Shown here: piece after piece, positions 4,944 to 62,467 of the stretch
Position numbering within the stretch: position 1 is the first letter of the stretch
How the letters are laid out: each line of letters begins with the position of its first letter
Origin: a virus
DNA: 64,000 bases
Strand: one strand, 5' to 3'
Virus record (IMG/VR): IMGVR_UViG_3300040771_000127
The notes under the pieces: model-generated
Database searches by the model: none
The model's input: only the letters and a program-made list of their open reading frames with translations
Told to the model about the DNA's origin: nothing
Translations under genes and position numbers: made by a program

Positions 4944-6980
4944 ATGTCTGACGGAATAAGAGAAGTTGATAATGGTTTAGCTTACGATTTTGGTGTAGCC
5001 ATTGCTAGAGGCGCAGCAAGTTCTTTAGCTGTTATGGCAGCACAGGTTGTAACAATCACTGGAAGTATTTACGCACTTATAGATGCAGGTAATACTTCTG
5101 ATAATATGCTTAGAAGAAACCAGTTGGCTATGGGAGGTTACGCTAATTTCCTAAAGTCAGTTGACTACTTCTCAGAAAAAGTTATATCAGGTCAAAGTTA
5201 CTTTGATGTAGAAAACCTAATGGAAGGTTCCAAGGCTCTACAGAGTGCAGGTATAGATGTAAAGAAAAATTTTGATTTAATCAATAAGTCTGCTCAAGGT
5301 ATTGGGTCAGACTTTTCTGCATTGTCACAAATAATAAAAAACGGGGATTACTCTGCTCTTGCTGAGGCAGGTTTAATAACAGAACGTATGGCTACCAATA
5401 TGGAGCGCACTACGTTTACACAGGAGCAAGGTACTAAACGTGTTTTGGCTTTACTTAAACAAGCTGATACTAAAGGTCTATTTTCTGGAAATATTGCTAC
5501 ACTGGGTCAAACTATTGAACGGATAAGGCAAATATACAATCGATTCATGGAGTCAATACTTGGAGATTTAAAAGATCCCGAGGGTTTTTGGTATATACTT
5601 AAAAAGGCCTTTTCTGATTTTGCTGACTTTTTTGCCAAACGTATGGACAAGATAACCAAGATCGGTAACATACTAGGTAAAGTTTTAGGCTTCATAGTTC
5701 GTACGGTATCGGGATTCATGCGTTTCATGGGTAGAATGTTACAGAAAGTTTTAGGTAACAATGACGAATTTTTTTCTAACTGGCAGGACAAAATGCTGTC
5801 TTTTGGTTTATGGTTAGAAATACTTAGAGTTAAGATAGGTGCTTTTTTCGAGAGTTGGGGACCGCTTATTGTAAAGCTGTGGTTATTTAACTCAGCACTA
5901 AACGCTGTTTGGATGATTGGTACTAAATTAGCCAGTATTAAAAAAGCCACTTTTATTGAGGCATTAACTAAGGGTGGTGATTGGTTGAAGGGTTCAGGTT
6001 TCGCACGTTTAGGTTCTTATATTCAAACTGTTCTTATACCAGCTATAACTACTATGGGAGGTTCTGTTTGGTCGGCACTTGCGCCCGTTATAGTTACTGT
6101 GGGTATAATAGCGGCAGTAGTGGCAGCACTAGTTTTAATAGTGGCTTACTGGGATGAGATAAGAGGTTATGCAAACCAGACTTCTAATTCTACTTTAGTA
6201 CTGTTAAATTTATTCCTGCCTATTGTAGGTTTAGTTCTTACTATAGCTAAATACTGGAACGAGATAAAAACTATTGCTACTAACGTGGGTAGAGTTTTAC
6301 TTAATTACATAGATATATTAATGTCCGTTTATAACATTATAGGTAAATACCTTTGGGGAGGTCTTAAAAATGTGTTTAACTGGTTAAAAGGTATACTTAA
6401 GAGTGTTAATGTTTGGATGTCTAATACTTTTGGCTCTGCTTGGACTACATTTAAGTCTATATTTTTTGACCCTATTAAAAGCGCCTTTATGTGGATAAAA
6501 GATTTGATTGGTAACTTATTTGATTTCGACTTAGGTGCAGGATTTAATAAACTTATTGAGTGGACTAAATCTGCGGCTGATGGTACTAAAGAAGTTGCTG
6601 ATAACTTAGCTAAAAAGTCGGGACGTGCTGGTTTTGCTAAGGGCGGTGAAACGCTTAAAGTTAATCAGAAGAAAGAAGTTGCTAAATTAGTAGCGCAAGG
6701 AAAAAGTGATACTGAAATTGCCACCTTAATGGACAATGGTAACTTCGATAAAAATATGATTTCCCAAGAACGCCAGAATGCTAAAGCTACTAAACCTATT
6801 AAGAGAATTGCTCAGGTTCCTACCAAGATCACCAATAGTAACAGTAGTGGTGGAAACGTTCAAACGAATACGTACAACATTTACGTTAAGAACGAGATGG
6901 ACGTTGAGAAAGTAGTTAAGGCTGTTGAGCAGACAAATAAAAAGCATGCTGATATAAATAATAGACGTAAAGGTAATTAA
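4944..6980 (+). CDS. Tail tape measure protein
   Basis: 678 aa, the largest ORF after the chaperone pair. Helical/hydrophobic central region (IPAITTMGGSVWSALAPVIVTVGIIAAVVAALVLIVAYW). Position is typical of a tape measure. Confidence 0.75.
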   Translation: MSDGIREVDNGLAYDFGVAIARGAASSLAVMAAQVVTITGSIYALIDAGNTSDNMLRRNQLAMGGYANFLKSVDYFSEKVISGQSYFDVENLMEGSKALQSAGIDVKKNFDLINKSAQGIGSDFSALSQIIKNGDYSALAEAGLITERMATNMERTTFTQEQGTKRVLALLKQADTKGLFSGNIATLGQTIERIRQIYNRFMESILGDLKDPEGFWYILKKAFSDFADFFAKRMDKITKIGNILGKVLGFIVRTVSGFMRFMGRMLQKVLGNNDEFFSNWQDKMLSFGLWLEILRVKIGAFFESWGPLIVKLWLFNSALNAVWMIGTKLASIKKATFIEALTKGGDWLKGSGFARLGSYIQTVLIPAITTMGGSVWSALAPVIVTVGIIAAVVAALVLIVAYWDEIRGYANQTSNSTLVLLNLFLPIVGLVLTIAKYWNEIKTIATNVGRVLLNYIDILMSVYNIIGKYLWGGLKNVFNWLKGILKSVNVWMSNTFGSAWTTFKSIFFDPIKSAFMWIKDLIGNLFDFDLGAGFNKLIEWTKSAADGTKEVADNLAKKSGRAGFAKGGETLKVNQKKEVAKLVAQGKSDTEIATLMDNGNFDKNMISQERQNAKATKPIKRIAQVPTKITNSNSSGGNVQTNTYNIYVKNEMDVEKVVKAVEQTNKKHADINNRRKGN

Positions 6981-20871: not shown

Positions 20872-21582
20872 ATGAATTGTATAAACAAAGTAAAAGAACT
20901 TCCCGAGAATTTAACTACCCAAGAATTAACTGTGTATTTTTACTTGTTATCCCGATGCTACGAGGATAATAACCTTATAATTAGTCATGTCACTGCTGAT
21001 TCGTTAAAGAGGCAGTTTGTATTAGATGAAGAACAGCTGGACCAGGTGCTAGATGCTTTATTTGACAAGAACCTTATTTCTGAGGAGCATGGTATTATTG
21101 GTTTAGGTTACTTTGTTGATAAGACAGTAGTATTGTACACCGAAGAGGAAAGTAGTTCTGAAGCTCTAAATGTTTTTCCTGACTTGCTTGAGCGATCGGA
21201 CACTTTTATGACTACTGCTAAGAGGGCAGTATCTAAGAATTTATCATATAACATTAAAGAGTCACTTATTGAATTGAGTAAAGTAAAAGCTGCGGAGTAT
21301 AATACTCACCAGATGCTTAAACTATTTAAAAGTGTTTCGGAACTTGTTATGCAGGAAGAGTATCGTGCTTTTGATAAAGCTGAAGCAGGAAGCATGAAAC
21401 GTTTACTTACTAATTTAGGTGGTGCTAAGCTTTTACCCTTAATTGTTACCTACTGCACCAACTTTGACAAATGGGGTAATTTTCCCAACGTTTTAAACCT
21501 TACTAAGAATAAGGACGCTATTTACGGAAGCTTCAAGGTAATAGAAAGTGATGAAAAGTTAGGCACGGAGAGTTTTGGATAA
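20872..21582 (+). CDS. Putative replication organizer / winged-helix initiator (DnaD-like)
   Basis: 236 aa. The N-terminal LTTQELTVYFYLLSRCYEDNNLIISHVTADSLKRQF...LDALFDKNLISEE looks like a winged helix. It lies upstream of the DnaC-like loader. Function is inferred. Confidence 0.35.
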   Translation: MNCINKVKELPENLTTQELTVYFYLLSRCYEDNNLIISHVTADSLKRQFVLDEEQLDQVLDALFDKNLISEEHGIIGLGYFVDKTVVLYTEEESSSEALNVFPDLLERSDTFMTTAKRAVSKNLSYNIKESLIELSKVKAAEYNTHQMLKLFKSVSELVMQEEYRAFDKAEAGSMKRLLTNLGGAKLLPLIVTYCTNFDKWGNFPNVLNLTKNKDAIYGSFKVIESDEKLGTESFG

Positions 21583-23572: not shown

Positions 23573-23670
23573 GGGGAGGCAAGTCCACTTGGAAGGGCAA
23601 CATACAGTGTCGGGGCATAAAGATATAAGCTAATATCTCCCCAAGGTGGGTTCGATTCCCACCCTCTCCA
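23573..23670 (+). ncRNA. Atypical tRNA-like element (canonical acceptor, D and T arms; no canonical anticodon arm)
   Basis: The 5' strand GGGGAGG pairs with the 3' strand CCTCTCC, including a G3-U70 wobble, with A at the discriminator position. T arm is GTGGG-TTCGATT-CCCAC. D-like arm is GTCC-ACTTGGAA-GGGC. The middle folds as an extended hairpin GGGG-CATAA-AGATAT-AAGCTA-ATATCT-CCCC instead of a 5-bp/7-nt anticodon arm. Total length is 98 nt. Confidence 0.45.
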
Positions 23671-23684
23671 CAAAAAACCATGAC

Positions 23685-43142: not shown

Positions 43143-43149
43143 AAATTGT

Positions 43150-43157
43150 TATATTTG
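43150..43157 (+). promoter_or_regulatory. TATATTTG promoter-like -7 box
   Basis: Matches TAnnTTTG, upstream of the H1-like gene. The -33 element is unclear. Confidence 0.3.
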
Positions 43158-43243
43158 GGTCTCTAAAGGTATTAGTCTTGTTCCAGCCGATAACGGACTT
43201 TTATTTGTCAATTCAATACACGGCAAAGAAAAAATCAAACATT

Positions 43244-43393
43244 ATGAAAAATGTACATTTTTTAACAACTGGAGCAGGTGCAGCTAAAGCACCCGCTAAA
43301 AAAACACCAGGTAAAAAAGCACCAGCTAAAAAAGCACCTGCTAAAAAAGCACCTGCTAAAGCACCTGCTAAAAAAACTAGAGTTAGAAAGTAA
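43244..43393 (+). CDS. Histone H1-like Lys/Ala/Pro-repeat protein (49 aa)
   Basis: MKNVHFLTTGAGAAKAPAKKTPGKKAPAKKAPAKKAPAKAPAKKTRVRK, encoded by a ~15-nt tandem DNA repeat. The track ORF starts at a TTG upstream. It has its own terminator. Confidence 0.5.
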   Translation: MKNVHFLTTGAGAAKAPAKKTPGKKAPAKKAPAKKAPAKAPAKKTRVRK

Positions 43394-43415
43394 TTTCTGC
43401 TCTATGGAACAAAGT

Positions 43416-43447
43416 AAAAAGGAACTCTTCATTGGGTTCCTTTTTTT
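43416..43447 (+). terminator. Rho-independent terminator
   Basis: AAAAAGGAAC ... GTTCCTTTTT stem followed by a T7 run. Confidence 0.65.
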
Positions 43448-43476
43448 AGTTATATTTGTAAAATAAACCAGTTACT

Positions 43477-44157
43477 ATGGATTCGATTCTACTATTTTCG
43501 GCGGGTAAGGAAAGTCTATACCAGTTACACCATAAACAAAAAGTGATAGGCAAACTTATTATGTTTGACTACGGACAACTTTCTTTTCCAGCAGAGTTTA
43601 CCTCACTTAGGTATTATGCTAAACTTTACGATAAACCGTATCAGGTAATCAAACTAGACTTCTTTATTTTACCACCAGCAATAAAAGATGGTATTGACTG
43701 CAATCCTTACGTAGCGCAAAGAAATTTAGTTTTTTGTAGTATTGCGCTATCTCTTGCAGAAGTAGGCGGTTATAAGAAAGTATTTTTAGGAGCCGTAGCT
43801 GATGCAGTAGATTTCGATGGTTCTCCAAGATTTGTAGATGATATGAATTACCTACTAGCTAGTAGTAGTGTAAAAGTCGAAAGTTTTTCTCGTAGGTATA
43901 CTACAGGACAGATACTTGCTTCCCTAGTAAAAAATAAAGTAGACATATCCCACCTTTGGAGTTGCGATAATCCCAGAGATGCACCTACATTTTGTGGATC
44001 TTGTGCTAAGTGTACTAGTGCTTTAAGAAACCTCAGAGACCATTATTCCAATAATAAGTTAGTTAGAAAATTCTACGACCAGAAATATAAAAATTCGGAC
44101 ATCCTAAATGTTTTAAGTTATGAGTTTGGACAGGAGCAAAAAATATGCGAGCGATAG
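43477..44157 (+). CDS. queC: QueC-like protein (7-cyano-7-deazaguanine synthase family) with variant PP-loop
   Basis: Collinear with QueC: LLFSAGKES (versus VFSGGQDS), MFDYGQ, VAQRNLVF, and the zinc site WSCDNPRDAPTFCGSCAKC. Confidence 0.65.
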   Translation: MDSILLFSAGKESLYQLHHKQKVIGKLIMFDYGQLSFPAEFTSLRYYAKLYDKPYQVIKLDFFILPPAIKDGIDCNPYVAQRNLVFCSIALSLAEVGGYKKVFLGAVADAVDFDGSPRFVDDMNYLLASSSVKVESFSRRYTTGQILASLVKNKVDISHLWSCDNPRDAPTFCGSCAKCTSALRNLRDHYSNNKLVRKFYDQKYKNSDILNVLSYEFGQEQKICER

Positions 44158-45076
44158 TAATAAGGATAAGGCAGTAATGTTTTTTTCCGCTTCCTCTTAC
44201 AAGGATGCTCTAGCAGTACTAGATTCAGGTATAAATGATATTCTTACTTCCTACCACTATATAATGAAGCGTGAAAAAGGTTTCACTGAAGACGTAATGC
44301 CCCGTATAAAAGCTAACGGAGGTTTATTTATGACAGATAGTGGTGCGTTTACTTTCTTTGCTAAACCTACTCCTGAGATGTACACCGAAGAATACTGGGA
44401 ACCCTATATTGAAGAGTACGTTAAGTTTCTACGAGATAACGCTCACCAAATTTATTGTGCGGCTAACATGGATATTGATATTTTTGTAGGTCAAGAAATT
44501 GTAGATCGCTGGAACAAAAAGTATTTTGAACCTTTAAAAGGTATTGTTCAGATAGTTTACATTGTGCATGGTAATAAAGCTATACGTAGAGATGATGAAT
44601 ATGGAATAAAACGCTTTAAAGAATACGCAGCTAAATATGAATACTTAGGTATGGGTTCTTCTATGTTTAAGAAAAACTCTCGTTCAGACAACCGTTACTA
44701 CGCCCTTGCTAGGTTGCTTAAAGTTAGGCTACATGGTTTTGGTTGGACTTCTATTCCCTCTTTAAAAGAGTTTCCTTTCTTTAGTGTGGATTCAACTACT
44801 TGGCTTGGGGGTGTTCGTTATGGAACTACCTATACCTATGATGGTGCTAACGATAGAGTACTGGACCACAAGAAAAAATTTAGACGTAAGGGTATGAAAT
44901 CCTTATGTAAAGATTTAGGAATAAATCACGAAAACTTGTTATTAGAGAAGAGGGATGAAATAAATGCACTAAATTTGTATGGATGGAAAGGTTTTAGGTT
45001 TGAGTTTCTTAAGGCCGCCAATACTAAATTAAAGTATAACCCAGCACGTAGTTACGCTAAATACCTAGAAAAATGA
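44120..45076 (+). CDS. dpdA: DpdA-like DNA guanine transglycosylase (TGT fold)
   Basis: 318 aa between queC-like and queE. GGLFMTDSGAFTF resembles the TGT DSGGFQ pocket motif. An alternative start is ATG 44177 (MFFSASS). Confidence 0.55.
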   Translation: MSLDRSKKYASDSNKDKAVMFFSASSYKDALAVLDSGINDILTSYHYIMKREKGFTEDVMPRIKANGGLFMTDSGAFTFFAKPTPEMYTEEYWEPYIEEYVKFLRDNAHQIYCAANMDIDIFVGQEIVDRWNKKYFEPLKGIVQIVYIVHGNKAIRRDDEYGIKRFKEYAAKYEYLGMGSSMFKKNSRSDNRYYALARLLKVRLHGFGWTSIPSLKEFPFFSVDSTTWLGGVRYGTTYTYDGANDRVLDHKKKFRRKGMKSLCKDLGINHENLLLEKRDEINALNLYGWKGFRFEFLKAANTKLKYNPARSYAKYLEK

Positions 45077-45378
45077 GAAGTACTGTAAAACAACATAAGA
45101 GAAAAGTCAAGAACAAAGTAGTAACCGTTACTAGGCACGCTAGAGGTAAGTACGGTAAAAAACCTAAGAATGATAAATACCCACCTAGAGATAACGCTAG
45201 TGTTGACCTTGCCACATTGCAGGCACACTATAAAAAGTATCAAGAGGAATTTACTAAGCTACTCAATGGACAATTAACTTCTAGTGACCAACATAAAAGT
45301 TTTATTGCCCGTAGACTAAGAGCAGCCGCTAGAGCAATAAAGTTAAAACAAAAGAGAAACAAAAATTCGGATAACTAA
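45073..45378 (+). CDS. Very basic small protein
   Basis: 101 aa, rich in Lys/Arg at both ends (KQHKRKVKNKV..., ...KLKQKRNKNSDN). ATGA overlap with the dpdA-like ORF. Confidence 0.5.
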   Translation: MRSTVKQHKRKVKNKVVTVTRHARGKYGKKPKNDKYPPRDNASVDLATLQAHYKKYQEEFTKLLNGQLTSSDQHKSFIARRLRAAARAIKLKQKRNKNSDN

Positions 45379-45394
45379 TTAGAAACACTTTATT

Positions 45395-45988
45395 ATGCTA
45401 ACACTACCAAAATTTATTAAGCGCACAAAAAATTCTTACCACACTATTAAGCCTTACGTAGCTGAGGTTATTTTCACACCCGATGAATGTAAAATATTAG
45501 TCGAAGCAATTACTTCCAGTCAAGTAGGTAATAGGGAATTTATACCAGGTAAAGAGGGAAAAGATTCTAGTCGTTACGATTTAGATAGTACCAAGTATGC
45601 TTGGGTATACGCTCGTATTTATGAATTTATGTTGAAAGCCAACAAAGAGAATTTTGGTTTAGATCCTAATTTTTGTTTGTCAGAGCCAGTATACCTTAAT
45701 GAGTATAAGGGTAAGGAGTACTGCGGTTGGCATACAGATGGTTTTATATCTGATGGTGAAAAATACCTTTACAGAAAACTTACTTGCGTAATTCAGATGA
45801 GTGAACCTAAGGATTACACTGGAGGAGATTTTGAATTGTTTTCTTACCATGCAATACACGAAGATATTAGACCTATTGGTACTGCCTACATTATACCGGC
45901 TTTCGAGTGGCACAGAGTTACCCCTATTGAAAGTGGTACTAGAAGAAGTTTAATAATGTTTCTTGAAGGAACAGAACGCTTAAAATAA
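45395..45988 (+). CDS. 2OG-Fe(II) oxygenase (prolyl-4-hydroxylase-like)
   Basis: HxD...H...R facial triad context: CGWHTDG, FEWHRVTP, TRRSLIMF. Confidence 0.7.
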   Translation: MLTLPKFIKRTKNSYHTIKPYVAEVIFTPDECKILVEAITSSQVGNREFIPGKEGKDSSRYDLDSTKYAWVYARIYEFMLKANKENFGLDPNFCLSEPVYLNEYKGKEYCGWHTDGFISDGEKYLYRKLTCVIQMSEPKDYTGGDFELFSYHAIHEDIRPIGTAYIIPAFEWHRVTPIESGTRRSLIMFLEGTERLK

Positions 45989-46827
45989 TGCCTAGAAAAA
46001 GTAAACGTTTAGAAGAAGCAATAGTATCTGTAGAGGAAGTATCTCCAGAATTACTAGATAAAACACCTAAAAAAGAAGTCTCCCTTATACTTAAGGAAGG
46101 GGAGTTTATGCATGACCTAGTTGGTGAGATAACAGAAGTTGAGGACTTACGTAATGTTGTCTGTCCTTTCTACAAAAACGGTAGAGCTGTTAAATGTATA
46201 GGCTGTAAAAAAGAAGATGATATTGTAGAAGGTTGCAAGGAGGAACTAATAGCCGGTTTATTACGTAGACCTACTTACGGACTTTCGGGAGCCTTTTATG
46301 ATACTGCATTTGATTTGCCCATAGTGTTACCTAGGGTAGCAAAAGTTTCTGTATTAGACACAGTAGCAATGGGATTGATTTGTAATACTTGTCACGTTTC
46401 AGACAATTGCCCACTTTATGTAGAGAATCATGAGTGTGGTATTGACTGGAAAGAGGGAGTAGACACCACAGACACAAAAGCTGTCTTAGGCCACATGATT
46501 GACTTACAGATGCAGCGCGTTACTCGTGCTAGAAATATGGAGTTAATCGATGGTGGTATGCCTGACCAAACCACTTCGGGAGAAATGGATCGCCTTACGG
46601 GTCTTATAGGTATGAAAGACAACTTGGATGCTGACCGATTTTCTGTTCGTATTGATGCCAGTAGTAAGAGTGGTAGCGAAGGCGGCGGAATACTCGCTAA
46701 ACTTTTCGGAGGTGGAGGTAGTGGTAGTAATACCGAGAATCTCCCTGAGTTAGAAGCTAAAACAATTGATTTTGAAGAACTGGAAGTAAAACCCGCTACC
46801 AAAGATAAAAGAAAAAAAGATGAATAA
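45988..46827 (+). CDS. Cys-rich hypothetical protein with Gly-rich tail
   Basis: 279 aa with clusters CPFYKNGRAVKCIGCKKEDDIVEGC and CNTCHVSDNCPLYVENHEC, and GGGILAKLFGGGGSGS near the C-terminus. Confidence 0.5.
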   Translation: MPRKSKRLEEAIVSVEEVSPELLDKTPKKEVSLILKEGEFMHDLVGEITEVEDLRNVVCPFYKNGRAVKCIGCKKEDDIVEGCKEELIAGLLRRPTYGLSGAFYDTAFDLPIVLPRVAKVSVLDTVAMGLICNTCHVSDNCPLYVENHECGIDWKEGVDTTDTKAVLGHMIDLQMQRVTRARNMELIDGGMPDQTTSGEMDRLTGLIGMKDNLDADRFSVRIDASSKSGSEGGGILAKLFGGGGSGSNTENLPELEAKTIDFEELEVKPATKDKRKKDE

Positions 46828-47560
46828 GTTAAGACTAAACACTATCTACATTACCTATCAAGGTGAGGTAAACCATTTCGGAATCGGTACTCCCGTAATC
46901 TTTTTACGTTTACAAGGATGTCCTATTCGTTGCTACAAAGATACTATGGGTGTTCTTTGTGACACTCCAGAGGCTTTAGAAAAAGGTACTAGCAACTCTC
47001 TTGAGGTTACTGAAATAGTAAACCGATTAAAAGACGTTAAGAAGTACACAGGAATTAATCTTATCTGTTTAAGTGGTGGAGACCCTCTTTGGCAGAATAA
47101 GGAATCACTACATGATTTGTTTCAGCAGTTAGAGGCGAATAAATTTAATGTGAGTGTTGAGACTTCGGGAGTAATATCTATAAAACCTTACAGTAAGTAC
47201 AAGAATGTTTTTTGGGTAGTTGACTATAAATTATTGTCTGCAGGTGTAAAGACAGATTTCCATAAAGATAACTACGCTACCCCTGAGGGAACTATTATAA
47301 AATTCGTTGTTTATGACGAGGCTGATTTAGCTGAGGCTATACACATATATAGACTGGGTGTGTTTAGTTTAAATACTAAATTTACTTTTGGTTTATATTG
47401 GGGAACTACAAAAATCACTTACTCCGAATTAACGGGTCGCCTTGTACGGGAGAATATGTTAGGCCTAGTAGGGGTAAATTTCCAAGTACATAAAATGGCT
47501 GAGTTTTATGACCAAAACAGTGTAGCTGCCCATGAAACAGTAGTTAGAGCTAAAATTTAG
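46820..47560 (+). CDS. queE: 7-carboxy-7-deazaguanine synthase (QueE, radical SAM)
   Basis: IYITYQGEVNHFGIGTPVIFLRLQGCPIRCYKDTMGVLCDTPEA is collinear with the QueE N-terminus (SIQGEG..G.P..F.R..GC...C..CDT), but the cysteine spacing is C-x3-C-x8-C. Confidence 0.75.
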   Translation: MNKLRLNTIYITYQGEVNHFGIGTPVIFLRLQGCPIRCYKDTMGVLCDTPEALEKGTSNSLEVTEIVNRLKDVKKYTGINLICLSGGDPLWQNKESLHDLFQQLEANKFNVSVETSGVISIKPYSKYKNVFWVVDYKLLSAGVKTDFHKDNYATPEGTIIKFVVYDEADLAEAIHIYRLGVFSLNTKFTFGLYWGTTKITYSELTGRLVRENMLGLVGVNFQVHKMAEFYDQNSVAAHETVVRAKI

Positions 47561-48083: not shown

Positions 48084-48950
48084 ATGGAAAGTAAACCTAA
48101 TTTAGCTATCGGGGAAGTAGTCTTGTTCCCTATTGAAGATGGTTCCTATTTAAGAGGAACTATATTATCATTCTTGCGTTCAGATAAAAAAGCTCGCATA
48201 GAAGAAGAAATTACAGGAGATATATACAAGTGTCCTACTGTTTCCTTAGACAAGATAGTTAGTAATGATGTCAACTGGAGATTTAAGTATTATGAAGATT
48301 TAGCCACACTCACAATTTTTAAAGAGCTTAAAAGTATTTTCGTTGCTGGAGAGGGAGGTCTTGGTAAGTCCTACATAATACAACAAATTTTAGAGAGTGA
48401 GGAGTTTCGTGAAGATAGAGATTACGTGTACGTTAAAGGTCATGTGTCTGCTTACGCTTTATTTCAGTTATTACAAGATCACCCGAGCAAACCTTTCATA
48501 TTTGATGATTGCGATGGGATATTAAAAGATCCTATAGCTTTAAATATTCTTAAAGGTGTTATTGATAGTTACAGTGTACGTAAAGTTAAATGGCTTACTA
48601 ACTCGGGAGTTGCTTCTAGGGTAAGTAGAACCTTTGAGTTTACAGGATCAATAATATTCCTATCTAATTTAAACGTTGAGAATGTACCGCAACCTATAGT
48701 TTCTAGAACTACTATGGTAGATGTTTCTATGACTAGTAAAGAGAAGATGGAACGTATGCGCCACATTGTAAAGCACATGCCAGAGATGGAAGCCATTAGT
48801 TTAGTTGACAGAGAAAAACTCCTCGATATTCTAGACAGTTATAAAATGATTGTAAAAGATTTCAACTTGCGTAGTTTAGTAAAAGCGGCAAATATGTTTA
48901 ATAAAACAGGCGACTGGTCTTACGTTAAAGCAAGTATTTTAGCCTCGTAA
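48084..48950 (+). CDS. P-loop NTPase with N-terminal Tudor/SH3-like domain
   Basis: Walker A VAGEGGLGKSY and Walker B PFIFDDCDG. The N-terminus is IGEVVLFPIEDGSYLRGTILSF. Confidence 0.5.
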   Translation: MESKPNLAIGEVVLFPIEDGSYLRGTILSFLRSDKKARIEEEITGDIYKCPTVSLDKIVSNDVNWRFKYYEDLATLTIFKELKSIFVAGEGGLGKSYIIQQILESEEFREDRDYVYVKGHVSAYALFQLLQDHPSKPFIFDDCDGILKDPIALNILKGVIDSYSVRKVKWLTNSGVASRVSRTFEFTGSIIFLSNLNVENVPQPIVSRTTMVDVSMTSKEKMERMRHIVKHMPEMEAISLVDREKLLDILDSYKMIVKDFNLRSLVKAANMFNKTGDWSYVKASILAS

Positions 48951-53377: not shown

Positions 53378-53388
53378 TTGTTATTAGC

Positions 53389-54015
53389 TACACAGTAAGA
53401 GTATCTGATACAAGGGTAAAATGCTTTTGCGGGTAGTAGTAAATCTACCAGTAGCTACTAATGTATACACAGACGCATTTACTAGGGTTACACACAGCTA
53501 GTATATGATACACGAAGTACCAGTAGCGAAAATCATCGGTTAGAGATGCGTAAAAAGTAAAATTTGCCCCATAAGAAGTCAGGCACAATGGTAATAGTAT
53601 ACTAATATGACTGATAACGTTGGGAAACCCCTTGAATACTGCCTTAAACCATACTAGAAAAATATGCGGGCAAAGTGTTAATGGTAAGTTTATCTATGTT
53701 ATGTATAGTATAAGTATATGGTAGTAGATGTTTATGTGTGATGTAGGTACGGAGAGATACCAAAAGAAAGAAAGAAGTTCTGTAGCCACAGGTACACGTA
53801 GCTGCGTAGGGTAATTAGTTACACAGAGAGATTCTACACACACAGAGATTAGCTAACTACACACACGCACACACAGGGAATTTTACACAGGTAAATTTTA
53901 CACACGCAGTTACAAGCGTAGCTGGGTAATAAATTAAATATAACTACACGCACAGAGAATATGCTTAAAGATACACACGCACATTTAGGGAGAGTTTTTG
54001 GTAATCTACACACAG
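53389..54015 (+). repeat. Array of 13 same-orientation TACAC(AC)n(G)CAG-type short repeats
   Basis: Copies start at 53389, 53466, 53489, 53509, 53793, 53820, 53835, 53858, 53884, 53899, 53945, 53972 and 54007. The last two lie inside the first codons of ORF 53961. The span is otherwise a 583-nt non-coding gap. Confidence 0.7.
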
Positions 54016-54305
54016 ACTATCTAGCCATTATTGATTATAAAACTGCTGGCAGTCCATCACGTAAATTAGTTCTAGTTAGTATGAGCGTAGATTATTCTTC
54101 TTGGTTAGTAACTACTGGAACTATTTCTAAATTCTACGGGGAGGAAGATGTAGATGATATGTTAGTTAATATATTAGAACACTTAAATTACCCAGATAAA
54201 TTTCTAGTAACTAGTCAATCTGAATTTACTGGAATAGTTCCTTATACTACTCAGCAAATGCTTAGGCACTTGTGTAGTTACTTACCAGTTAATTTTAAGC
54301 CTTGA
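53961..54305 (+). CDS. Hypothetical protein (paralogue family member 1)
   Basis: 114 aa. ISKFYGEEDVDDMLVNILEHLNYPDKFLVTS aligns with the next ORF. Confidence 0.5.
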   Translation: MLKDTHAHLGRVFGNLHTDYLAIIDYKTAGSPSRKLVLVSMSVDYSSWLVTTGTISKFYGEEDVDDMLVNILEHLNYPDKFLVTSQSEFTGIVPYTTQQMLRHLCSYLPVNFKP

Positions 54306-54328
54306 AAAAATAATAAAATATTATACAC

Positions 54329-54874
54329 ATGACTTCATCAAATACTTGGCACGTATGGGAAACTGCTACTACCGGATTAGATCCACAGGACTTAATATTA
54401 CTTATCGAATACCAAGAATCAGAACGTACTTTTACTATTAAAACAATTAACGCTTTTAGTAGGATAGTAGGAGAAGAAAAAGAATTAAACTCTTCGCAAC
54501 TAGTAATGGAGATACTAGAACGTTTAAGTTTCCCGTTGTACTTTTCTGTAATAAGTTTGACTGGTAAGGAAACTGCAAAAAAACGCATGAGTATAGAGAG
54601 GGTAGTTAGTTATATTATAAATGCTACTACTTTAATTAAGGCTACGAGGATGCGTGATTCTTTAAGTCCTACGGGTGTTACACCTTTTAAGCCTGAAAAA
54701 CTTTCGGACGCTTCAGGTAGTGTAAGTGGTAGGTCTATTACTCCTTTTCCACGTGGTATGTTTAGAGAGACTGATATAAAAGGTAGTGTTCATACTTCTG
54801 ATATGATGGATGCTTACATTAGTGCGCTTAGTGATGTGCTTGATTTAACTATACTAAAAGATAAAGAAAAATAA
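54329..54874 (+). CDS. Hypothetical protein (paralogue family member 2)
   Basis: 181 aa, with FSRIVGEEKELNSSQLVMEILERLSFPLYFSVIS. Confidence 0.5.
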   Translation: MTSSNTWHVWETATTGLDPQDLILLIEYQESERTFTIKTINAFSRIVGEEKELNSSQLVMEILERLSFPLYFSVISLTGKETAKKRMSIERVVSYIINATTLIKATRMRDSLSPTGVTPFKPEKLSDASGSVSGRSITPFPRGMFRETDIKGSVHTSDMMDAYISALSDVLDLTILKDKEK

Positions 54875-54876
54875 CT

Positions 54877-55260
54877 ATGATAAGAATCGTAAAGTTTTAT
54901 TTCCGTAGTGAAGAGAAAGTTAGTACAGCTTGTTGTATTATTATAAAGTATGGTGTTCTTACTCGAAGAGTTAGTGCCAGCTACAATTTTACGCATACTG
55001 GAGAAGGTACTGTAATACGCAATGAGGGTAAAGAGTCTCTATTGTATGAACTGGAGTTATTATTGCTGGATATAAACAATTACGGAAATAATATAATTGT
55101 TGGTATTACACTACATGAGGATAAAGTAGTAGTTAAAATGTACAGAGTTATCTTTATGCTCCGTGTAGTTATAGACTCTTTAATTGGAGGTGTATCTGTT
55201 AATGAAGATGTAATGATACGTAACTATTGTTTAGAATCTAGACATGATATATTTAGCTAG
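54877..55260 (+). CDS. Hypothetical protein (possible third paralogue)
   Basis: 127 aa, with a weaker resemblance (NEGKESLLYELELLLLDINNYGNNIIVGIT). Confidence 0.45.
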   Translation: MIRIVKFYFRSEEKVSTACCIIIKYGVLTRRVSASYNFTHTGEGTVIRNEGKESLLYELELLLLDINNYGNNIIVGITLHEDKVVVKMYRVIFMLRVVIDSLIGGVSVNEDVMIRNYCLESRHDIFS

Positions 55261-55277
55261 GAACGGAGTGGATGAAA

Positions 55278-55530
55278 CTGTGTGTGTGTTTAGCTGGCTT
55301 GGATTAGACCCCCCCACCAAAGTTCGTCAACGGCTGGGTAAAAGCTTGGCTTAGTAGTGATACAAAAAAGCTAGATACCGTAGAACACAAGTATAATTAT
55401 TAACTATCGAAAGGTAAACAATGTGTGCGTGTGTGTTAGGTAACTGGGATGTGTGTGTACGGGTGTAGTGTGTGGATGGGGTGAGGTTAGTGTGTAGGTA
55501 AAAAATTTGTGTGTGATGTGTTGTGTGTAA
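55278..55530 (+). repeat. Array of GTGTGTA-type repeats (reverse complement of the 53389-54015 array)
   Basis: CTGTGTGTGTGT 55278, TGTGTGCGTGTGTGT 55422-55436 (exact inverted copy of ACACACACGCACACA at 53859-53873), TGTGTGTGTA 55450, GTGTAGTGTGTGG 55463, AGTGTGTAGG 55489, TTGTGTGTGATGTGTTGTGTGTAA 55507-55530. Confidence 0.7.
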
Positions 55531-55550: not shown

Positions 55551-55556
55551 AAAAGC

Positions 55557-55647
55557 CCTTGATGGTTGGGGCTAGAATCTTTCATACATTTATATCTATT
55601 GGTTAGTTAGGTGGGAGTTCCTCTACTGTAATGGTAGGGGAATTTTT
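55557..55647 (+). ncRNA. Candidate ~90-nt small RNA (promoter box to intrinsic terminator)
   Basis: Bounded by the promoter-like box at 55543-55550 and the terminator at 55618-55647. The only ORF inside is 14 codons. Boundaries are inferred. Confidence 0.3.
55618..55647 (+). terminator. Rho-independent terminator
   Basis: TTCCTCTAC/GTAGGGGAA 9-bp stem (one G-U pair), 7-nt loop, then TTTTT. Confidence 0.65.
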
Positions 55648-55798
55648 GCGTTTGGTAGGTGCGTAATGGTGCAATCAGAGCCTTCGCTTGTGTAGTTTGA
55701 CTGGGTTGTGTTGTTCACAGGTAAGTAGTAAAATGATGGTGAAAGTCGGCATAGTGCCTTATTTGGTCGTTTTTGGTGGCTATCTGATTAACTTACGT

Positions 55799-55819
55799 AA
55801 ATTTAACAAAAATTTAACA
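55799..55819 (+). repeat. AAATTTAACA direct repeat x2, 11-nt periodicity, in an AT-rich tract
   Basis: Copies at 55799-55808 and 55810-55819, inside a non-coding AT-rich stretch next to the GT-repeat array. Confidence 0.55.
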
Positions 55820-55861
55820 TTTCTACCTTGTTTAACTATTGTAGGTTAATCAATGTTGTCG

Positions 55862-55869: not shown

Positions 55870-55967
55870 TATGGTAATACAATACGAGGGGCAAGTTCCT
55901 TCGACGTTTGAGAGAAGAACGGATTAAAACTCTTAGGTGGTACTTCCCACTTTCCTGCCAAGGGAGC

Positions 55968-56035
55968 CTATAAGCACTAGCGAATACGAGGCCACCCAGA
56001 CATCACAGGCAAATGAGGTAACTATAAGCACTAGC
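55968..56035 (+). repeat. 14-nt perfect direct repeat CTATAAGCACTAGC x2 in the leader region
   Basis: Copies at 55968-55981 and 56022-56035. AATACGAGG also occurs twice (55881-55889, 55983-55991). Confidence 0.6.
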
Positions 56036-56105
56036 TTGCTAAGGTTAACTGATGAGGCTTCAATAGCCGAAACCATTTAGGTATTAACCATTAAAATTTA
56101 CGGAT

Positions 56106-56297
56106 ATGAAACTTACAAAAGAACAAAGTGAAGCAATTAGTACACTTAAAATGTTTAAGAGAACCCATATAACTAAGCTTGCTAAAAAAGAAATTACTTT
56201 GAAGCAGTATCATGACGACTTCCAGATAGCCTTGGAAACTGCCGTTCAAAAAACGGGTTTAGAAACTAGTGAAGTCGGATTTTTAATACTATCATAA
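56106..56297 (+). CDS. Hypothetical protein
   Basis: 63 aa, the first ORF after the long non-coding region. Confidence 0.5.
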   Translation: MKLTKEQSEAISTLKMFKRTHITKLAKKEITLKQYHDDFQIALETAVQKTGLETSEVGFLILS

Positions 56298-59359: not shown

Positions 59360-60595
59360 ATGACAACGGAAACAGTAAAAGTTGGAAACACAACTTACGT
59401 AATAACGGACCCAGAAAATAAAAAGGTAAAAAAATTGTACAGTTTCGATAACTTGGAGGAGCTGATAACAATGGATCAAACTTTCCAAGATAGTTTTATG
59501 AATACACTTCATGGTTATCTTAGAGAAAAAGATGAAGTTACTACCACTAGGAGAAAAGATAAAGTCGGTGATTGGATAATGTGTAGAGGTTATAAAATTC
59601 AAGTGGATGATGAATTAGGTTTTACTATAAGCGATATGCAAAATTACGCTAGAGTATGTGAAGAGTTTGATAATCCTTGCCCTACTCCTAGGGAAGTTTG
59701 GGACTTTATTAATAGTAGCACCCATCGTAAAAAGAGTAAAGAAGTATTTGTAAAAGTAACGCCTAAGGTAGTTGTTGAAAAAGAAGAAAAGCACTATACT
59801 GAAAAAGCGGAAGATGAATTGGTTTCCAGTGAGTATGAATTATTGAGGGCTGATTTACTTAACGAACTAGAAGGACTATCAGTACCTAAGATGGTAGAGA
59901 TGGTTTACAAGTACATACCGAATAGAAAATTCAACCACAGGGTAAATAAATTATGTAATGCCTACCTAGCTAAAGAAATGCGAGGATTAAAATTTCGTAA
60001 CGAGCTTACGGAACTAATAAATACGCACAAGTTTGAAGAGGTTAAAAAAGTAGCCAAAAAATTCGTGGGTCTTGGTTGGTACAATATTAATACTTTAGAG
60101 GTAGTGAAAGACAGTATATCATTTGTTACAAAAACTGAGGGGCGTTTCCACTTTAGTAAGAGTGAGTTTTTAGCTAGATACTTATTACACCTAGAGCCTA
60201 AAATAATGCCTCAAATGTGGAGGTTTATAAATGGTTTCCTGACTAGAGAGCAGTTCTTAGAAGCACCATTACTTACGGGTGATACTGAGGCAAAATATAT
60301 AGATTTTGATATTAGCTGCCTTAGAAAACCTAATGAGGAACTTGATGCAATATGTAACAAGATTCTAAAAATTTGGGAAGAGCCTAATCCATTAGGTATA
60401 TGCTACAAGAACGACCTTACTACCGAATTAAAAGTGGGTGATTACGTTGAAGTACAATGGAAAGATTTTCATACTTCTTACGAGGGTAAAGTTATAGGTT
60501 TTAATGGTGGTATTCGTATACGCTACGAGGACGGGGAGGTTATGCCTTTATATAAGTGGCAAGAAGTTGAGGTGTTATCTAAAAGACCTGAGTAA
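59360..60595 (+). CDS. Hypothetical protein with C-terminal Tudor/SH3-like domain
   Basis: 411 aa, with C-terminal LKVGDYVEVQWKDFHTSYEGKVIGFNGGIRIRYEDGEVMPLYKWQEVEVL. Confidence 0.55.
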   Translation: MTTETVKVGNTTYVITDPENKKVKKLYSFDNLEELITMDQTFQDSFMNTLHGYLREKDEVTTTRRKDKVGDWIMCRGYKIQVDDELGFTISDMQNYARVCEEFDNPCPTPREVWDFINSSTHRKKSKEVFVKVTPKVVVEKEEKHYTEKAEDELVSSEYELLRADLLNELEGLSVPKMVEMVYKYIPNRKFNHRVNKLCNAYLAKEMRGLKFRNELTELINTHKFEEVKKVAKKFVGLGWYNINTLEVVKDSISFVTKTEGRFHFSKSEFLARYLLHLEPKIMPQMWRFINGFLTREQFLEAPLLTGDTEAKYIDFDISCLRKPNEELDAICNKILKIWEEPNPLGICYKNDLTTELKVGDYVEVQWKDFHTSYEGKVIGFNGGIRIRYEDGEVMPLYKWQEVEVLSKRPE

Positions 60596-61404: not shown

Positions 61405-61998
61405 ATGAAAAAATTAATTGCAACTTTAGTAACGGCTTTTGTGCTTACAGTAGTACAAGGTCAAGATCGTGATTCCTACATAGGTTTAAGTACGGGTATC
61501 GATATAAGAAATGCTATAGTAGGTAGCGCACCCACTGATAATAAAAGTGCAGCAGACCTAAACTTAATACTTAGCCTAGTATCTAAAAACTGGGAAGTAA
61601 CTGCTGGATATGAACACTTCGAGAAAATAAATTTTTCAAAGTACAGTATTGGAGTTGGCTACCGATTCCCCCTATACTGCTACATAGGAAATAAACAAGT
61701 AAGGACAACTGTAGCACCATCTATTGAGTATAACATTATAAATAGATGGGATAAGTGGGGTAACAGTCTTAGCTATGATGAACCTAGTTCCCACCTAGCT
61801 CCTAGTGCTTCGCTACGTATTCATTGGGAGTTAGGAGAACGTTTAGGCTTAGGTCTTTTACTTAATGCACAAGTCAGAGCAGACCTAGGCGCAAAGTACC
61901 CTAACACTAGTTGGCATCAAAAAGCCACTGCTTTTAATTCTCCCGTTGTAGGTTCTACGTTTCTAGTTATATCATACAAATTGAAGAAGTACTTTTAA
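61405..61998 (+). CDS. Outer-membrane beta-barrel protein (OmpA-barrel/OprF-like small OMP)
   Basis: 197 aa with signal peptide MKKLIATLVTAFVLTVVQGQ, alternating amphipathic strands, and a C-terminal ...SYKLKKYF ending in an aromatic residue. Confidence 0.55.
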   Translation: MKKLIATLVTAFVLTVVQGQDRDSYIGLSTGIDIRNAIVGSAPTDNKSAADLNLILSLVSKNWEVTAGYEHFEKINFSKYSIGVGYRFPLYCYIGNKQVRTTVAPSIEYNIINRWDKWGNSLSYDEPSSHLAPSASLRIHWELGERLGLGLLLNAQVRADLGAKYPNTSWHQKATAFNSPVVGSTFLVISYKLKKYF

Positions 61999-62077: not shown

Positions 62078-62467
62078 ATGCTTAAACACACTATAAAGTC
62101 AATCGGTACTGAAAAACTCGGGAAACAGTCTCTAAATAAGTCAAAAAATCCAACTAAAAAACGTGCTATTCCTACGGTAGCCAATAAAAACGCACTAAAG
62201 ATAAATCCTAATGTACGTAAGGTCGATAGTAAAAGTAGTATAGTTAGGCGAAAGGGTATAGCGTTCACAACCGTGGAATCTTCTAACTTAAAAGGTTTTT
62301 TCCACGATGTAACTAAGAGAGAATTGTTGATTCTTTTTAATACTAATAGAGTTTACAGGTATGCTAGAGTACCTAATTACGTTGTGGCTGGATTAGCCAA
62401 CGCTTCCAGTAAAGGGATTTATTTTACTGCCAACATTAGATACAAATATTCCAAGAAAGAATTATAG
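62078..62467 (+). CDS. KTSC-domain protein with basic N-terminal arm
   Basis: 129 aa. VESSNLKGFFHDVTKRELLILFNTNRVYRYARVPNYVVAGLANASSKGIYFTANIRYKY fits the KTSC domain pattern. It lies directly upstream of the large terminase. Confidence 0.55.
   Translation: MLKHTIKSIGTEKLGKQSLNKSKNPTKKRAIPTVANKNALKINPNVRKVDSKSSIVRRKGIAFTTVESSNLKGFFHDVTKRELLILFNTNRVYRYARVPNYVVAGLANASSKGIYFTANIRYKYSKKEL

Follow-up and report, generated by a model that had tools for sequence, protein, structure and literature searches.

Organization of the locus

The window analysed here, a 64,000-nt stretch of the IMG/VR virus record IMGVR_UViG_3300040771_000127, comes from a phage of about 81 kb (source contig, 81,286 nt). 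All 32 open reading frames (ORFs) of at least 200 aa in the window lie on the + strand, and the phage genome is one-directional, with its genes read from left to right. The only large non-coding region, which extends over about 2.7 kb, parts the last genes of this array from the first ones. From left to right it holds a gap with TACAC-type direct repeats, a cassette of three small tandem genes (ORF1–ORF3), a block with a run of C, a C-depleted G+T tract, two promoter boxes, an AT-rich block and a leader with a predicted hammerhead ribozyme (Table 1). An initial annotation had described the locus as one type of iteron in two opposed arrays that bracket three genes. The gaps of 583 nt and 845 nt that it singled out do rank as the two largest true intergenic gaps in the window gap list, and no other repeat field was found in the 64-kb window.

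Nine related phage loci were compared (L003, L004, L005, L006, L007, L008, L009, MT835482.1 and BS162P1). L003–L007 were reached via the 411-aa protein encoded at 59360-60595 (47-73% identity; contigs of 80.7-82.1 kb), L008 and L009 were added by a profile search with the cassette family, and MT835482.1 and BS162P1 were taken from GenBank. No nucleotide match to the window was found among 50,697 phage records, and no closer relatives were found in IMG/VR (queries ORF2, the 411-aa protein and the AT-rich block) or among JGI metagenome contigs (query P2 block). The closest isolate is Bacteroides phage BS162P1 (PolA identity 42%), with whose gene order the window is colinear from 1.5 to 47.5 kb. 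A 2.1-kb non-coding region of BS162P1 is syntenic with the locus, and in both genomes the region is flanked on one side by a small-gene block and on the other by genes that lead to terminase, portal and capsid. The terminase of MT835482.1 is 54% identical to that of the window phage.

A common order was found in all the relatives. It starts with a conserved left non-coding part and the repeat field, after which come between 0 and 6 paralogous small genes in tandem; next is a conserved block that contains GGTCGGCTT and a run of C (of G in BS162P1). Then come the G+T tract (not in MT835482.1), the TATATTTG box, a short transcript with its terminator, the AT-rich block with TATCTTTG, and the leader, followed by the first genes heading to terminase and portal. 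While this layout is kept in every relative found, the individual repeat motifs, the gene-proximal repeat field and a 15-nt inverted pair are not.

Table 1 Features of the locus (positions in the 64,000-nt window)
Feature	Position	Strand	Description
Left non-coding gap	53378..53960	+	583 nt; layout kept in relatives (alignment with L003, L004, L007)
Distal element 1	53389..53414	+	TACACAG-N-GTAT-N-GATACAAG; TACACA core, then TGTAT/ATACA dyad
Distal element 2	53488..53514	+	Same build as element 1: TTACACACAG-N-GTAT-N-GATACA
Gene-proximal direct-repeat field	53793..54015	+	9 TACAC(AC)n(G)CAG(AGA) units, irregular 15-46 nt spacing
ORF1	53961..54305	+	114 aa; small 'LNYPxxF' paralogue family, hidden Markov model (HMM) E=3e-20
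ORF2	54329..54874	+	181 aa; same family plus C-terminal extension, HMM E=1e-26
ORF3	54877..55260	+	127 aa; doubtful third member, HMM E ~0.01
Conserved non-coding block	55260..55399	+	GGAACGGAGTGGA, C7 run (55309-55315), ACCAAAG, then GGCTTAGTAGTGATACAAAAAAG (55348-55370)
O1	55400..55419	+	TTAACTATCGAAAGGTAAAC; copy of the TTAAC-N-GTTAA dyad that overlaps P2; kept in relatives
Right 'array'	55420..55530	+	C-depleted G+T tract, (TG)n blocks about every 19-22 nt
P1	55543..55550	+	Bacteroidota-type -7 box TATATTTG; kept in L003, L004, L006, L008, L009
Short transcript from P1 (predicted)	55556..55655	+	~100 nt, ends in hairpin + U run
Best-conserved non-coding block	55785..55861	+	AT-rich; TGATTAAC, two AAATTTAACA copies, O2 TTAACTATTGTAGGTTAATC (55832-55851)
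P2	55862..55869	+	-7 box TATCTTTG; putative promoter of first (early) gene block
Type I hammerhead ribozyme (predicted), leader	56043..56089	+	HH9 22.9 bits, E=0.015
TACACACAGAGA			Candidate protein-binding sequence, alongside GT tract and C-run block

The left element is a field of direct repeats

The word TACAC occurs 13 times on the + strand between 53389 and 54015, the number given in the initial annotation, where the rest of the window would predict 1.03 (Poisson P ~9e-11). For the longer word TACACRCAG (up to one mismatch), 38 matches were found in the window compared to 19.8 ± 4.5 in shuffled sequence, and none of 100 shuffles reached 38, so that the motif density exceeds what composition predicts. 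The window-wide enrichment is due solely to the 12 matches on the + strand within 53464-54015.

Alignment of the close relatives L003, L008 and L009 divides the left gap into a distal and a gene-proximal part. The distal 250 nt are ~99% identical among the three and carry both TACACA-N-TGTAT-N-ATACAA elements, the first of which is kept in L003, L004, L008 and L009. The gene-proximal field, which is the dense part of the array described initially, extends into the first 18 codons of ORF1, with copies at 53972 and 54007 inside the start of the gene, as had been noted. Between L003 and L009 this field differs by substitutions and by one 12-nt unit.

The repeat consensus from 84 sites is YRCAC-A-(CA)-G-A-G-A, and the left element, judged by its alignment with the relatives, is a lineage-specific direct-repeat field, YRCACA(CA)GAGA. 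The scaffold of MT835482.1 opens with the same motif field; its first 602 nt account for 18 of the 60 YRCACR sites counted over the 12 kb examined. At the homologous spot, the more distant relatives BS162P1 and L007 carry TCTAATTAGA/TAATTAGC repeats instead, which are palindromic and AT-rich (TAATTAG sites at this spot: 11 of 19 in BS162P1, 9 of 14 in L007). This switch of motif between lineages, palindromic in some, argues for a specific DNA-binding protein, and the left repeats are most likely sites for such a sequence-specific protein. Decayed copies of the paralogous genes were considered as a source of the left gap and rejected, as its three-frame translation gave no family signal.

Three further observations concern this side of the locus. 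Tandem duplications of 12-13 nt are present both within and ahead of the first L006 gene. The sequence AGCGTAGCTGGGTAA, at 53915-53929 in the left gap, reappears in the right gap of L003 (7386-7400), L008 and L009. A similar sequence, GCGTAGCTAGTGTAAG, occurs in Streptomyces phage BRock (L130, 339-356), 120 nt inside the boundary of its left direct terminal repeat (DTR), possibly by chance.

The right element keeps a composition

The C7 run between ORF3 and O1 is the window's sole run of C or G of at least 6 nt. The corresponding run is C6 in L003, L004, L006 and L008, C9 in L009 and L007, and G7 in BS162P1; GGTCGGCTT is retained even in L007 and BS162P1.

The right cluster contains 5 C in 150 nt and has a GC skew of 0.83, both extremes of the window (most C-depleted, most G-over-C). 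It holds eight (TG)n blocks, and GTGTG occurs 14 times against 0.13 expected; the autocorrelation of the blocks is weak and their sequence is not kept among relatives. C makes up 3-8% of the G+T tract in all relatives but MT835482.1, compared to 14.9% of the genome, while the words that fill it vary by relative (GGTGTRG, CGTGGGTG, CGTGTG). Among close relatives, the tract shows an 18-24-nt unit indel and more substitutions than its near-identical flanks, and none of these substitutions introduces a C. In the G+T tract it is the composition that is kept, not the sequence.

The two sides are different elements

At least six reverse-complement copies of the left repeat had been reported between 55278 and 55530. 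That figure was not borne out, since only three sites match the reverse complement of TACACRCAG (up to one mismatch) and only four match GTGTA. The two sides are not mirror images: the left side is A/C-rich yet retains G at 19% (C 21 against G 19 per 100 nt), while the right has only the 5 C in 150 nt. In the relatives, too, the left motif is unlike the right one, contrary to the idea of a single iteron type.

The exact 15-nt inverted pair reported for the locus is present (53859-53873 and 55422-55436), as are the direct words shared by the two sides, GCTGGGTAA at 53921 and 55333 and TGTGTGATGT at 53735 and 55510. In the relatives, the longest complement between cognate left and right sides measures 9-12 nt, with none of it in the CA/GT parts; the left arrays of L003, L008 and L009, which are non-cognate, have 14-nt complements in the right tract of the window. 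The 15-nt pair, which is not conserved, is a by-product of the (CA)n/(TG)n richness of this phage. A conserved long-range RNA or DNA pairing between the arrays was rejected on the same comparison, cognate pairs being no better than non-cognate ones. BS162P1 has both elements with zero genes between them, so the bracketing of three genes is incidental. On these comparisons, the repeat clusters are real but represent two different elements, not one mirrored set of iterons.

The small-gene cassette

ORF1 and ORF2 are paralogues (BLASTP E=3e-4, and HMM), in line with the initial statement that at least two of the three genes are related; ORF3 is a marginal member, with no BLASTP similarity to ORF1 or ORF2. 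The family comprises proteins of ~100 aa with beta strands followed by a helix ending in LNYPxxF, and has 18 uncharacterised database members. No Pfam or PHROG match was found for ORF1–ORF3 or the family member P0007, and a single-sequence search with ORF2 returned only itself among 5.8e9 proteins. AF2 models of ORF2 and P0007 were of low confidence (pLDDT 54 and 47), and one Foldseek search with a cassette model gave nothing at E<0.03. A known fold, Rep-like or otherwise, was rejected for the cassette proteins, with poor models and no structural match. The iteron interpretation holds in that the clusters are far above chance and form the only repeat field in the window, but no Rep-like, helix-turn-helix (HTH) or other DNA-binding signature was found in ORF1–ORF3 by Pfam, PHROG or AF2/Foldseek.

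In L007 and MT835482.1, unrelated tandem paralogues occupy the place of the cassette, and the number of paralogues differs between lineages (from 0 to 6). Comparison of the relatives indicates that this place attracts fast-evolving duplicated small genes, whatever their family. Covariation of the repeat type with the cassette family was considered and rejected, since MT835482.1 combines a TACAC field with an unrelated pair of paralogues. In L004, the first cassette gene (6046-6408) is frameshifted relative to its L003 orthologue, through pseudogene formation or sequencing error.

Promoters and a short transcript

The P2 box is invariant in all aligned relatives. It is overlapped by a dyad, TTAACTATTGTAGGTTAA, which has a copy 432 nt upstream at 55400. 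This copy, O1, corresponds to direct repeat D5 and is 80% identical to 55832-55856; together, O1 and O2 flank the GT tract plus P1. From their sequences, P1 and P2 are probably host-type promoters, and early transcription would start there, directly downstream of the GT tract. Boxes of the Bacteroidota -7 type (TAnnTTTG) are present in the intergenic regions of the window ahead of other genes too, and by its promoters the phage appears to be of Bacteroidota type. The AT-rich block upstream of P2 is near-invariant across four lineages, and the phased repeat noted there initially corresponds to AAATTTAACA, present twice (55799 and 55810).

The hairpin assigned to the short transcript spans 55611-55648, and a canonical terminator occupies the corresponding position in L003. 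In all close relatives, the P1 box is followed ~70-100 nt on, at the same place, by a hairpin and U run. The segment 55543-55655 may represent a short non-coding transcript or a 14-aa mini-ORF, MVGARIFHTFISIG.

No consensus promoter was found in the left gap. Leftward promoters, which might have produced the skew of the left side through transcription, were rejected as its cause, none being found.

A putative hammerhead ribozyme in the leader

The predicted ribozyme has an intact hammerhead core (CUGAUGA and GAAA), a GUA/GUC cleavage triplet and three stems (RNAalifold). Its score compares with a gathering score of 52 for the Rfam family HH9, and a scan in gathering mode gave no match. The predicted cleavage site, 56083|56084, is 22 nt ahead of the ATG at 56106 of the first early gene. 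Stem I shows one compensatory GC<->AU pair plus an AU->GU change, stem III is extended to 7 bp in L006, and H17 is A or C. The hammerhead is found in five relatives, including L003 (8181-8228), L006 (3012-3071), L008 and L009; L004 is without it, and its leader and first two genes differ. These features suggest a conserved minimal type I hammerhead in the 5' leader of the first early gene. It shares the cores, three stems and cleavage triplet of type I hammerheads (Rfam clan CL00010), but is minimal, falls below the gathering thresholds and lies 22 nt from a start codon.

The same core, with a stem II of GGCTT-NNN-TAGCC, is present in at least 120 metagenome contigs from JGI, ENA and TARA (L135 onward), and no relatives of the window phage were found among the matches listed. 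Several of the contigs among these matches carry a nearby homologue of the AAA+ protein encoded at 48084-48950.

The leader of ~200 nt (55870-56083) is conserved in the window, L006 and L003, with the blocks CCCACTTTCCTGCCAA, ATAAGCAC and AGACATCACAGGCAAATGA, and contains an exact 14-nt repeat, CTATAAGCACTAGC, at 55968 and 56022. No Rfam family matched this segment. The predicted cleavage would split the conserved leader RNA from the early mRNA.

Other features of the window

Genes annotated in the window include those for a contractile tail sheath, a SNF2-type helicase, a C5 methylase, PolA, a CobT-like protein, DnaB, a DnaG-type primase, RecA and a DnaD-like Lin1244_N protein. The last of these (20872-21582) has no homologue in BS162P1 or MT835482.1, for which reason covariation of this protein with the repeat type was set aside. 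QueC, QueE and TGT/DpdA-like genes constitute a 7-deazaguanine DNA module at 43477-47560, comprising QueC-like, two TGT/DpdA-like (44120-45076 and 45988-46827) and QueE-like genes. The two TGT-like genes are separated by two additional genes in the window and are adjacent in BS162P1. One of the two additional genes (45395-45988) we take, by eye, to be a candidate 2OG-Fe(II) oxygenase.

No tRNA genes were found in the window, and an Rfam scan of the window gave no family at its gathering score. A tRNA-like element of ~100 nt at 23573-23673, with an acceptor stem and T arm (GGGGAGG...GGGTTCGATTCCCACCCTCTCCAC), sits in a 239-nt intergenic gap; it matches the ends of the tmRNA model at 24.8 bits, below the gathering score of 47, and gave no call with ARAGORN. 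Within the gap 43143-43476, a small ORF (43240-43390) encodes a Lys/Ala-rich peptide of KAPAKK repeats resembling a histone-H1-like tail. Its DNA is a 15-nt tandem repeat of 6.2 copies, with a TATATTTG box on either side.

Interpretation of the locus

One possible reading, which we favour tentatively, is that the locus is a concatemer-junction (terminal) and early-control region, forming the junction between the end and the start of the one-directional genome. In this reading, packaging would yield genomes with defined ends that carry a short direct terminal repeat, and the early promoters would lie just inside the entering end. The repeat field and GT tract may serve as recognition, spacing or end-processing elements, and the 2.7 kb would constitute one cis-acting hub into which the fast-changing cassette of small paralogues has been inserted. 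A non-coding junction parts the last genes from the first, with the early host-type boxes P1 and P2 just inside. The locus contains the window's sole C7 run as well as its most extreme strand skew, and the lineage-dependent switch of the left repeats fits recognition by a specific protein.

The closest characterised relative of the large terminase is that of Streptomyces phage BRock (32% identity over 92%), which has a 221-bp DTR shown by double coverage (PMC7453282). The cut sites of the full-length contigs (80.7-82.1 kb) bear no relation to one another, as would be expected if a terminally repeated or permuted genome had been assembled in a circle-like form; this is compatible with the reading without being diagnostic of it. 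In three independent assemblies a contig boundary falls within the left repeat field (the start of L006, the start of MT835482.1 and the ends of BS162P1). The ends of the BS162P1 record (OP172706.1; L001 1-54 and L002 43849-43902) overlap by 54 nt, in a circle-like manner, with the cut inside the repeat field; the MT835482.1 scaffold (L133 1-40) and the L006 contig (1-45) start inside a TACAC-type array. A switch of strand skew at the BRock DTR was considered as an analogue and rejected, as it is confounded by divergent gene orientation there.

Several points weigh against this proposal. The positions of the DNA ends, like any protein binding, are what we infer, whereas the anatomy and its conservation, the promoters, the terminator and the ribozyme can be read from the aligned sequences. 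A terminase identity of 32% is a weak predictor of packaging mode. Contig breaks in short tandem repeats can be assembly artefacts, and four long contigs, among them the source contig, were assembled across the locus without a break. The gene-proximal repeat field is deleted in L008, a full-length contig of 81,350 nt, which indicates that it is not an essential cutting or recognition site. In MT835482.1 the TACAC field is present and the C-depleted tract is absent.

Among known systems, the locus shares with T7-like and other short-DTR junctions a one-directional gene order, a large non-coding junction and host-type early promoters immediately inside, and its terminase has a relative in BRock, for which a DTR is proven. 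In T7, short-repeat fields reportedly adjoin the junction. Here, however, a cassette lies inside the junction, the repeat motifs are unrelated and the ends and redundancy are putative; the strand-polar CA-versus-GT composition is a feature of this locus undescribed for such junctions. Terminase sites are known in which repeated short words flank the cut, such as the pac hexamers of phage P1, SPP1 pacL/pacR and the R sites of lambda cosB. The locus resembles these in that short words cluster to the left and right of a central segment, upstream of packaging genes, but its terminase gene is ~7 kb away. Candidate small-terminase genes are at 61405-61998 and 62078-62467. The long terminal repeats of SPO1-like phages and Kayvirus, which reportedly are bracketed by short inverted repeats, likewise place small, fast-evolving, uncharacterised genes ('tre' genes) at the junction of genome start and end. 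Those repeats measure 3-13 kb and are proven by end sequencing, in contrast to the 1.3-kb cassette here, whose inverted pair is not conserved. In phage K, such terminal-repeat genes are the earliest transcribed (PMC11598898).

A more particular form of the terminal reading, which we consider speculative and improbable, is that the CA-rich field and the C-free GT tract border a short terminally redundant segment. Each virion end would then have a G+T-rich 3'-ending strand, telomere-like, and the RecA/UvsX-type recombinase encoded by the phage itself would use such tails to invade a further copy, driving concatemer formation and recombination-dependent replication. The hypervariable cassette would be carried within this repeated segment and would enter the cell either first or last.

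Alternatively, the left repeats and the GT tract could be operator or enhancer arrays that bind phage regulators timing the cassette, P1 and P2, with no role in ends or replication. We regard this as possible but rather unlikely. The two conserved host-type boxes, the promoter-to-terminator transcript and the TTAAC-N-GTTAA dyads O1 and O2, 432 nt apart, are what would be expected of such a region, as are the ~99% conservation of both distal TGTAT/ATACA dyads in close relatives and the constant placement of the dense repeats immediately before the first cassette gene. The repeats of L007 and BS162P1 are palindromic, like sites for dimeric regulators, but those of the window number 9-13, have one sense and irregular spacing and are non-palindromic, unlike known operators. 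The lack of a consensus promoter in the left gap and the conservation of composition rather than sequence in the GT tract also count against such a role; no regulator gene was identified, ORF1–ORF3 having neither an HTH nor another DNA-binding signature.

A replication origin, with the repeats as iterons for a phage initiator and the AT-rich segment 55785-55861 as the unwinding element, is in our view unlikely. In such a scheme, the P1 transcript or read-through RNA on the G-rich strand would prime or activate replication, and the CA-left/GT-right polarity would mark divergent forks. An origin is required, given that DnaB, a primase, PolA, a DnaD-like Lin1244_N protein and an AAA+ loader-like protein are all phage-encoded. 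No second repeat field was found in the window, and (TG)n blocks return here at intervals of about 19-22 nt. R-loops are favoured by G>C skew of the sort seen here in extreme form on the non-template strand, and a conserved AT-rich block and promoters are adjacent. Iteron replicons with arrays that flank an initiator gene include P1 oriR/incC-repA-incA and mini-F incB-repE-incC, and a related arrangement is ori/crr of phage P4. The order repeats-gene-repeats recalls the P1 and mini-F arrangements, and all three have in common with the locus a pair of short-repeat clusters separated by small genes, as well as a neighbouring AT-rich segment. The present locus, however, has no Rep-like protein or other initiator-like gene; its left units are ~9 nt long and spaced irregularly by 15-46 nt, as against 17-22 nt at two-turn spacing, and its left and right motifs differ. 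The proximal field is neither constant nor indispensable in close relatives, as its changes in unit number and its loss in L008 demonstrate, and BS162P1 has no gene between the clusters. The AT-rich block may be accounted for by P2 and its dyad, no minus-strand promoter was found for a leftward R-loop, and 17 kb of the genome lie outside the window. DnaA-box-like words (TTWTNCACA, up to one mismatch) number 192 against 193 expected, and a DnaA-box cluster was rejected, with no enrichment in the window and only three exact matches near the array. A 16-nt repeat pair inside the DnaD-like gene was likewise rejected as an origin, being too weak.

It is doubtful that the repeats act at the RNA level, the CA repeats being an unstructured leader and start region of the cassette mRNA that enhances translation, or offers a standby site, where the host does without Shine-Dalgarno pairing, and the C-poor GU tract keeping untranslated RNA free of Rho loading sites. 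The sense strand carries all 13 copies, which are densest between -170 and +55 of ORF1; there the last unit provides the context of the ATG (CACAGAGAATATG), as it does in L006 and L003, and the copies within the gene keep to one frame (His-Thr/Ala-Asp/Glu). However, the palindromic AT-rich repeats at the same place in L007 and BS162P1 point to recognition of DNA, and >450 nt part the distal copies from the nearest start codon. With C and G near equal, as given above, the left field is not poor in G and would therefore make a poor Rho site, and long-range CA/GU pairing is not conserved.

Equally improbable is the absence of any specific function, which would make the repeats low-complexity DNA generated by slippage in a weakly constrained spacer beside a duplicating cassette. 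Changes in unit number and loss of the whole field among close relatives would be expected in that case, as would the tandem duplications in L006 and the variation of the paralogue count from 0 to 6. Drift of this kind does not readily account for a YRCAC motif field kept across lineages as distant as 54% terminase identity, for C depletion that survives sequence turnover in at least six lineages, or for the ~99% conservation of the distal elements.

A transposon-like element, with the three genes enclosed by terminal inverted repeats in the form of the inverted CA/TG ends, is suggested by the exact 15-nt inverted pair and several imperfect ones, but is very improbable and is contradicted by comparison of the relatives. 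No transposase or recombinase was found (Pfam, PHROG), the pair is not kept in the relatives and does no better than non-cognate ones, no target-site duplications were found, and the flanks are syntenic in all relatives.

The terminal, operator or enhancer, and origin roles need not exclude one another. As a kind of element, repeat fields next to the ends, origins and early promoters of phages are already known; the particular build of this locus, with a switching repeat field, a C-free tract, a paralogue cassette and a ribozyme-processed leader, is to our knowledge and in the literature searched undescribed. The cultured members of this clade of Bacteroidota myoviruses have hardly been studied, and nearly all the visible cis-acting signals of the clade (repeats, C-free tract, promoters, small transcript and ribozyme) are gathered in these 2.7 kb, which makes the locus an obvious target for end mapping, origin mapping and the engineering of gut-phage vectors. 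If the polar CA/GT borders are truly genome ends, they would represent a new terminal architecture; otherwise, the locus would be an ordinary, though ornate, control region.

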